Of a DNA stretch of 64,000 nucleotides, positions 54,601 through 55,140 are shown piece after piece. Position numbers and translations under genes: made by a program. The notes beneath the pieces were generated by a model. The model worked only from the letters and a program-made list of their open reading frames with translations. It did not search any database and was not told where the DNA came from. Origin of the DNA: Escherichia coli (GTDB taxonomy: Bacteria > Pseudomonadota > Gammaproteobacteria > Enterobacterales > Enterobacteriaceae); the NCBI RefSeq assembly GCF_030384885.1, contig NZ_CP128613.1; one strand, written 5' to 3'. Numbering within the stretch: the stretch's first letter is position 1; every line of letters begins with the position of its first letter.

Positions 54601-54631
54601 GAGTTCCTGTCTTAAGCCACTTGCCGAAGTC

Positions 54632-54648
54632 AATTGGTCTTACCAATT
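54632..54648. promoter_or_regulatory. PdhR operator (perfect palindrome) in the pdhR promoter
   Basis: AATTGGTCTTACCAATT palindrome about 30 bp upstream of the pdhR start. Confidence 0.8.
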
Positions 54649-55025
54649 TCATGTCTGTGACGCTAAAGTAACAAAGTATTCACCTCATGTCCATACAGGT
54701 TTTGATTGAAATCATGAAACTGTGCACATTTTAACAAGTTGACATATATAACGTTTCAAAGTTGTAACTATGCACAAATTTAGACTTTACGTAGGAAAGG
54801 GATTTTTTAACGATTATTAAACTATAAAAATCCGAATTGAACCGATTCACTTACCAATTTATCGATTTTTAATTCAAAAATAATGAATTTATATTCATTT
54901 TGTATGTTGAGGGGATTTGAGGCTGACCTTTACAAACGGTTCCTTTTTAAGCAACTCATCTTCAACCATGCATAAAGCGGGTGCATTCGCTGCCGCATAC
55001 CATTATTCTTTATCTGACGGAAGTC

Positions 55026-55070
55026 CTTTTGTAACAATTCAAACGTCTTTGATGTAAACAAATTAATACA
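55026..55070 (+). promoter_or_regulatory. Putative tandem TyrR boxes in the aroP promoter
   Basis: TGTAAACAAATTAATACA and adjacent TGTAACAATTCAAACG resemble TGTAAA-N6-TTTACA, 70-115 bp upstream of aroP. Confidence 0.55.
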
Positions 55071-55140
55071 AAAAACGGAATTGCAAACTTACACACGCAT
55101 CACTGCGTAGATCAAAAAAACAATCACCGCACGAGGTTTC

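Follow-up and report, generated by a model that had tools for sequence, protein, structure and literature searches.

The pdhR-aroP intergenic region

The window analysed here, a stretch of 64,000 nucleotides of Escherichia coli DNA, carries pdhR and aroP in divergent orientation, separated by a spacer of 540 bp (positions 54601–55140) that extends from the pdhR ATG at 54600 on the minus strand to the aroP ATG at 55141 on the plus strand. The spacer is 100% identical to that of E. coli strain 2013C-4282 and it is matched, at least partly, in 5423 of 5426 complete E. coli genomes. In RefSeq the flanking genes are named pdhR, aceE, aroP and ampE, both at the identical locus and at a K-12-like one. 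A sequence-only reading of the window had described the spacer as a divergent pdhR-aroP control region in which a perfect PdhR palindrome, a possible second PdhR half-site and tandem TyrR boxes are separated by very AT-rich DNA. Its description of the locus is correct in view of the open reading frames, the 100% match and the RefSeq annotation, the gene names agreeing at both the identical and the near-identical loci. Moreover, all of the strings that it quoted were recovered at their positions by a direct check of the sequence, and the AT-richness is borne out by a GC content of 0.21–0.29 over positions ~54700–54950. Three matches to the chromosomal spacer were found in plasmid-labelled records, and these may be mis-assigned replicons or plasmid-borne chromosomal segments. 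The features of the region are summarised in Table 1.

A scan for promoters and terminators over positions 54500–55250 found none, the genuine promoters being too weak for the scan filter, and published start sites were therefore taken instead. An Rfam scan of positions 54300–55400 gave nothing at E ≤1, such that a known small RNA or leader is unsupported there. Small open reading frames within the spacer, including one of 24 aa immediately downstream of the aroP promoter P3, were rejected because they span unconserved columns and their start is missing in the island allele described below.

Table 1. Features of the pdhR-aroP spacer and its flanking genes, in window coordinates
Feature	Position	Strand	Remarks
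pdhR coding sequence	53836..54600	-	254 aa; open reading frame; WP_000331776.1 in the identical RefSeq E. coli locus
PdhR operator AATTGGTCTTACCAATT	54632..54648		perfect 7-3-7 palindrome
pdhR core promoter	54658..54693	-	start A 54658; probable -10 TACTTT 54670-54665; probable -35 TGGACA 54693-54688
Putative FNR/CRP-type dyad TTGATTGAAATCAT	54702..54715		centre -50.5 from the mapped start site
Conserved upstream block	54717..54790		conservation 0.6-0.9 across genera; includes the palindrome TGTGCACA, TATAACGTTTCA and TGTAAC
Predicted Cra/FruR-type operator core TGAACCGATTCA	54838..54849		centre -185.5 from the pdhR start site
PdhR right-arm look-alike CTTACCAATTT	54850..54860	+	best reading not a PdhR operator
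Unconserved AT-rich spacer	54861..54929		information content ~0 across genera; GC 0.21-0.28; hypervariable in E. coli
Conserved block with PAIusp insertion point	54930..54949		from flank alignments of strain Ecol_743
Overlapping divergent aroP promoters P1 (+) and P3 (-)	54971..55010		block conserved 0.65-0.87
TGTAACAATTCAAACGTC, earlier taken as first TyrR-like box	55030..55047	+	not a TyrR box; P2 -10 / P3 UP-element zone
Strong TyrR box TGTAAACAAATTAATACA	55053..55070	+	2 mismatches to TGTAAAN6TTTACA
Probable weak TyrR box CGGAATTGCAAACTTACA	55076..55093	+	G-N14-C kept (G2, C17); centre 23 bp from the strong box
aroP coding sequence	55141..56514	+	457 aa; open reading frame; WP_000969912.1 in the identical RefSeq locus

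For the comparison across genera, orthologs were collected by scanning one genome per species, which yielded 80 loci encoding PdhR. aroP lies divergently upstream in 77 of these loci, from many genera, with spacers of 526–653 bp, mostly 531–545 bp. Alignment of the orthologous spacers revealed a sharply blocked conservation profile in which the 190 bp proximal to pdhR are highly conserved. The spacers of Serratia (loci L084 and L085) lack the Cra-type box and carry a second full PdhR palindrome, CGTTGGTAATACCATTT, which scores 17.5 bits and lies 140 bp upstream of the primary operator, at 173–189 bp upstream of the pdhR ATG. No such two-operator arrangement occurs among the 76 Enterobacteriaceae spacers.

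The PdhR operator and the pdhR promoter

Two weight matrices were employed for PdhR, a symmetric one derived from the five database-supported sites of the gSELEX study (PMC7660256) and another derived from 28 gSELEX sites. The perfect palindrome AATTGGTCTTACCAATT scores 23.9 of a possible 24.6 bits and is the top match in 64 kb, with the runner-up at 11.6 bits; its dyad symmetry is complete and 14 of 14 arm positions fit the 17-bp box AATTGGTnnnACCAATT. It is also the published operator, the 14/14 PdhR box reported by gSELEX for the aroP/pdhR spacer being its reverse complement (PMC7660256), and it is near-invariant in the 76 Enterobacteriaceae spacers. The earlier claim of a perfect PdhR palindrome is thereby fully confirmed. 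According to the published mechanism, PdhR bound at this palindrome blocks transcription of pdhR-aceEF-lpd until pyruvate releases it.

The start site of pdhR is an A located 58 nt upstream of the ATG (PMC2759082). Position +1 is accordingly 54658, and the operator spans +11 to +27. The promoter string given in the literature (PMC2759082) fits the minus strand of the window with one SNP. The core promoter block is ~100% conserved, and the hexamers that we assign to it as probable -10 and -35 elements (Table 1) are our own reading. When compared with the FNR/CRP-type consensus TTGAT-N4-ATCAA, the dyad TTGATTGAAATCAT fits at 9 of 10 positions and it is ~99% conserved. FNR and CRP are among the listed regulators of pdhR (PMC10572922) and an Fnr ChIP peak has been reported for the aroP-pdhR spacer (PMC3974632); the dyad is a plausible FNR/CRP site.

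TyrR boxes and aroP promoters

The three aroP promoters, P1, P2 and P3, and the two TyrR boxes, one strong and one weak, were described by Wang, Yang and Pittard in 1997–98 and are summarised in PMC7142922. In the presence of aromatic amino acids, TyrR bound at both boxes, which lie upstream of P3, recruits RNA polymerase to P3, thereby excluding it from the overlapping main promoter P1 (PMC7142922). The window carries TGGTAT at 55002–54997, the P3 -10 hexamer that was mutated in PMC7142922.

Tandem TyrR boxes had been proposed at 55026–55070. TyrR control on the aroP side is upheld by the documented binding of TyrR to the aroP boxes (PMC7142922), and one of the two proposed boxes, TGTAAACAAATTAATACA at 55053–55070, stands. 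It is one of only two matches with ≤2 mismatches to the TyrR consensus in 64 kb, and the elements GTAAA...ATACA are conserved across genera, as are G2 and C17. The other, TGTAACAATTCAAACGTC at 55030–55047, was rejected as a TyrR box: it carries >3 mismatches, is unconserved, and the G-N14-C pattern fails because position 17 is T and not C. If it were a TyrR box, moreover, a 111-bp fragment known to carry P3 with the strong box only (PMC7142922) would have to contain it. The zone between P3 and the strong box accommodates the P3 UP element, which overlaps the P2 -10 (PMC7142922).

The second genuine box probably lies outside the range first proposed. Constructs have been described in which the weak box was removed while the strong box and P3 were kept, together with the 111-bp fragment carrying the strong box and P3 only (PMC7142922), and these deletions place the weak box between the strong box and aroP. 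The sequence CGGAATTGCAAACTTACA at 55076–55093 lies in this required position, adjoins the strong box on one face of the helix, has elements GGAA...TTACA that are conserved across genera, and is probably the documented weak TyrR box.

A conserved Cra/FruR-type box

The 12-mer TGAACCGATTCA, which corresponds to K-12 positions 121843–121854, is a palindrome of the LacI-family type, with a central CG and TGAA/TTCA arms. It is the sole match in 64 kb with ≤1 mismatch to TGAAWCGWTTCA, of which ~0.8 would be expected in 64 kb and ~0.007 in 540 bp. A pattern search showed that the box is kept as TGAA[CG]CG[AT]TTCA in 73 of 78 spacers, with flanks that are unrelated between genera. Variation is confined to positions 5 and 8: all 73 copies have C or G at position 5, and the right arm is either GATTCA or GTTTCA. 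Measured from start to start, the box always lies 205–206 bp from the PdhR operator. Between the box and the aroP start codon, by contrast, there are 273 to 404 bp, a variation of 131 bp across the spacers, and it is therefore the pdhR promoter, rather than aroP, to which the position of the box is tied. The 205–206 bp distance is constant even though ~50 bp of the intervening sequence are poorly conserved. In island-bearing strains the box remains intact and next to pdhR.

Several published data bear on the protein that may recognise this box. On the minus strand it reads GTGAATCGGTTCAA, which agrees with the distal fruB operator GGCTGAATCGTTTCAA at 12 of 14 positions (PMC11157272). Published Cra motifs are gcTGAAtCGaTTCAgc and ctgaAtCGaTtcag, and the deviating position 5, at which the Cra motif prefers T or A, holds <1 bit in the ChIP-exo motif (PMC5888115). 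ChIP-exo combined with RNA-seq demonstrated that Cra represses pdhR-aceEF-lpd (PMC5888115), and the regulators listed for the pdhR promoter include Cra in RegulonDB and FruR in RegPrecise (PMC10572922). Given the observed motif and its conservation, we infer that TGAACCGATTCA is a Cra/FruR operator, which Cra would bind at this coordinate. When the literature was searched in full text for the 12-mer, the only hits were in unrelated primers.

The location of in vivo Cra binding has been described as "downstream of two promoters" (Kim et al. 2018, PMC5888115), a placement that is not obviously compatible with a box centred 185 bp before the mapped start. Within pdhR, at ~+214 of the transcript and at about 122247–122258 in K-12, there is a further, weaker Cra-like 12-mer, TGAATCGCCTCA (54434–54445), with two mismatches, and this could be the site that Kim et al. 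placed downstream of the promoters. If so, TGAACCGATTCA would stay a conserved, database-predicted site. The intragenic 12-mer was rejected as a constrained Cra site since it shows ordinary synonymous variation and only 31 of the 79 orthologues retain it.

The candidate second PdhR site

The string CACTTACCAATTT, in which the sequence-only reading had seen a possible second PdhR half-site, does occur at 54848–54860. The segment CTTACCAATTT within it duplicates the operator right arm at 54639–54649 exactly over 11 bases. When the spacer was shuffled 5000 times under a first-order Markov model, sharing of an 11-mer had P ~0.006, a value that is uncorrected and derives from a test defined post hoc. 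In the corresponding 17-mer CGATTCACTTACCAATT (54843–54859) the right arm is perfect and the left arm, CGATTCA, agrees at 1 of 7 positions; the core is TCAnnnACC, such that the GGT of GGTnnnACC is absent and there is no dyad symmetry. The GGTnnnACC core is required if PdhR is to bind tightly (gSELEX, PMC7660256). Where a left arm would have to lie there is instead the conserved palindrome TGAACCGATTCA, which the earlier reading had split, the "CAC" of CACTTACCAATTT containing the last two bases of the Cra-type box.

The candidate 17-mer scores 3.7 bits with the five-site matrix (rank 146 of 63,984) and 1.2 bits with the 28-site matrix (rank 457 of 63,984), while the five database PdhR sites lie between 16.9 bits, for the weakest, and 23.9 bits. 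The median of the best non-operator PdhR scores in the 78 orthologous spacers is 3.95 bits. In the matrix scan that the sequence-only reading had itself put forward as a check, the second site is thus indistinguishable from background, the outcome that this reading had named as refuting it: the string exists and the PdhR site does not hold up. The window contains 9 copies of the half-site ACCAATT, with 10.6 expected.

Conservation of the half-site, TTACCAATTT, amounts to 0.38 across the 78 spacers as against 0.86 for the preceding 10 bases, and it occurs only in some Escherichia sequences. It is replaced by CTTACCAACTT in E. albertii and by CCAAGCAACAA in the PAIusp-type allele of E. coli, and is unrecognisable in Salmonella, Citrobacter, Klebsiella and other genera. 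No word of at least 9 bases is shared with the operator arm in the non-Escherichia Enterobacteriaceae spacers. Given this, and the improbability of the 11-mer, pure chance is an uncomfortable explanation of the string. A 60-bp query around the half-site detected 4364 of 5426 E. coli genomes at ≥93% identity, with the string kept in all of them, and it is on this basis that the string is assigned to the island-free allele class only.

gSELEX revealed a single box and a single array peak for the spacer, using an array that cannot resolve sites 211 bp apart (PMC7660256). The peak, at 121966, is displaced in the direction of the half-site, with the box (122052) 86 bp away, and this was rejected as evidence because most rows of the same table are similarly offset.

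The AT-rich centre and the PAIusp insertion

The window differs from the K-12-like allele at 27 positions in the spacer, 16 of which are concentrated in 67 bp (54861–54927) with 11 in the other 473 bp, corresponding to a divergence of 24% in this segment as against ~2% in the rest. The variable segment adjoins the insertion point of the PAIusp island and, judged by eye, its alleles resemble mosaics with the island-type allele, a pattern suggestive of recombination.

About 1060 of the 5423 E. coli genomes (~20%) match only the first 142–190 bp from pdhR and carry PAIusp. This island comprises the genotoxin gene usp, annotated as tssD and encoding a nuclease domain at the C-terminus, and behind it several imu immunity genes. 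usp is driven by aroP P3 under the control of TyrR and H-NS (PMC7142922). The observations on the island refer to locus L086 (3174–3700 and 7865–8319) and locus L005 (820–6569). In strain Ecol_743, the aroP-usp spacer aligns to 55140–54930 and the imu-pdhR spacer to 54949–54601, and these alignments place the insertion point at ~54930–54949, where the window carries the empty site. The sequence from the Cra-type box through pdhR stays adjacent to pdhR in the Ecol_743 island allele, and positions 54790–54930 are only ~60% identical between the PAIusp-type allele and the window. A direct repeat flanking PAIusp was considered and rejected: it amounts to a ~15/20 match in A/T-rich sequence, and direct alignment of left and right flanks failed to recover the copies, such that the 20-bp repeat may be an alignment over-extension. 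The unconserved AT-rich segment 54861–54929 probably represents unconstrained spacer and a zone of island insertion.

Two further observations concern the spacer. The block 54931–54950, TTACAAACGGTTCCTTTTTA, is conserved and lies 40–60 nt downstream of the P3 start site. In strain CFT073 an IS3-family element is inserted 142 bp upstream of the pdhR ATG and 84 bp upstream of the start site (L002 2643–3900, L005 962–2214), so that both the Cra-type box and the conserved upstream block are cut off from the core promoter.

Interpretation of the half-site

We consider, with a probability of about 0.75, that the pdhR-aroP spacer has one PdhR operator, and not two, and that the functional element at the half-site is the abutting Cra/FruR-type box TGAACCGATTCA. 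The half-site itself is most likely a lone right arm that PdhR would not bind. It could instead be an Escherichia-specific auxiliary PdhR site, where a weakly bound second dimer loops to the operator 211 bp away (~20 helical turns), and the effect would be a tighter autorepression or an interference with Cra, whose box the site abuts. The 11/11 identity to the operator arm, with its P value of ~0.006, a start-to-start spacing of 211 bp that is near an integral number of helical turns, and the retention of the string in all 4364 genomes of its allele class, at ≥93% identity over 60 bp, would all be accommodated by this explanation, and the Serratia spacers with two full PdhR boxes show that two-site control exists in relatives. 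They have to be set against the missing left arm, with GGT absent and its position occupied by the Cra-type box, against a matrix score at background, the lack of conservation in E. albertii, Salmonella, Citrobacter and the PAIusp-type E. coli allele, and the single box that gSELEX gives for the spacer (PMC7660256). An auxiliary PdhR site is accordingly judged improbable, and a role of this kind, specific to Escherichia, for the exact 11-mer is given only a slim chance. We know of no higher-order PdhR oligomers that loop DNA. Still more doubtful is a composite element of the Escherichia half-site and the Cra-type box, at which PdhR, looping from its operator, would displace or assist Cra; if true, it would integrate pyruvate and fructose-phosphate signals at one promoter.

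The identity of the factor at the conserved 12-mer raises a separate question, since it may be the operator of a protein other than Cra, either another LacI-family repressor or an unrelated dimer, with the half-site being irrelevant. The consensus cores of PurR, RbsR and MalI, which we take to differ from the box at 4 or more of 12 positions, count against this. In its favour are the C or G found at position 5 in all 73 copies, where the Cra motif prefers T or A, and the published in vivo placement of Cra downstream of the promoters (PMC5888115), but TGAA...TTCA arms with a central CG are the signature of Cra, position 5 contributes <1 bit to the ChIP-exo motif, both right arms, GATTCA and GTTTCA, are canonical, and RegulonDB and RegPrecise both list Cra/FruR at the pdhR promoter. 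This alternative is unlikely.

The heptamer recognised by NarL and NarP has the consensus TACYNMT, which is fitted by the TACCAAT of the half-site, and the string might thus serve nitrate control of pdhR or aroP, NarP being among the regulators of the pdhR promoter in RegPrecise (PMC10572922). Counting both strands, however, roughly one single heptamer of such degeneracy would be expected in 540 bp, and this one has no 7-2-7 partner and is not conserved outside Escherichia, leaving nitrate control through the half-site very improbable indeed.

Returning to the reading with a single PdhR operator and a Cra/FruR-type box, the region may work as follows. Cra would occupy its position-locked box at -185.5 and link expression of pdhR-aceEF-lpd to glycolytic flux; it may act by looping, by a bend in phase with the sites near the promoter, or by stopping read-through from P3. 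PdhR, at its single palindrome, represses pdhR with relief by pyruvate, as published. On the aroP side, TyrR at the strong and weak boxes activates the divergent promoter P3 and thereby shuts the overlapping main promoter P1, which is likewise published. The half-site, which has no partner arm and is found solely in Escherichia alleles without the usp island, would take no part in this scheme.

The PdhR operator, the TyrR boxes, promoters P1, P2 and P3, control of pdhR by Cra/FruR and the PAIusp site are all already present in the literature or in regulatory databases. A known region, with a background-scoring second site beside a conserved Cra/FruR-type operator, makes for an ordinary finding that matters little beyond correct annotation. 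It provides a useful negative result, in that a partial match to a strong palindrome needs a partner arm or conservation before it is annotated as an operator, and the genuine conserved signal near the half-site is the neighbouring Cra-type box. Of possible specialist interest are the distance between the Cra-type box and the pdhR promoter, which is fixed family-wide, and the statistically odd 11-mer duplicate of the operator arm in Escherichia.

Comparison with known systems

Known Cra/FruR operators, such as the distal fruB operator, are likewise 12-bp LacI-type palindromes with a central CG and TGAA/TTCA arms. The box in the window has one canonical arm (TGAATC on the minus strand) and differs in the other, TGAAC/GC. 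As with known Cra targets, the adjacent operon, pdhR-aceEF-lpd, belongs to the published Cra regulon. Repression by Cra is usually exerted over or downstream of the promoter, whereas the predicted box precedes the start site by 185 bp, which is unusually far upstream for a Cra repressor.

On the aroP side, the known P1/P2/P3 system is reproduced in the window, with the P3 -10, the strong box TGTAAACAAATTAATACA and, at a spacing of 23 bp, the weak box all present and identical to K-12. The two SNPs that distinguish the window from K-12 on this side, at 55045 and 55072, fall outside the boxes. The box earlier proposed at 55030–55047 is not among the documented aroP TyrR boxes. In B2-type E. coli, PAIusp occupies the same aroP-pdhR spacer and employs P3 as the usp promoter (PMC7142922), whereas the strain of the window is without the island.

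The pdhR promoter of K-12, its PdhR operator and autorepression by this GntR/FadR-family protein were reportedly described by Quail and Guest in 1995. The window shares with K-12 an identical 17-bp operator, the start site, the +11 to +27 position of the operator and the flanking genes, and only three positions differ within the first 190 bp from pdhR. The main differences between the window allele and the K-12 pdhR promoter region lie in the unconserved segment 54861–54927, and otherwise the two show no difference of substance.
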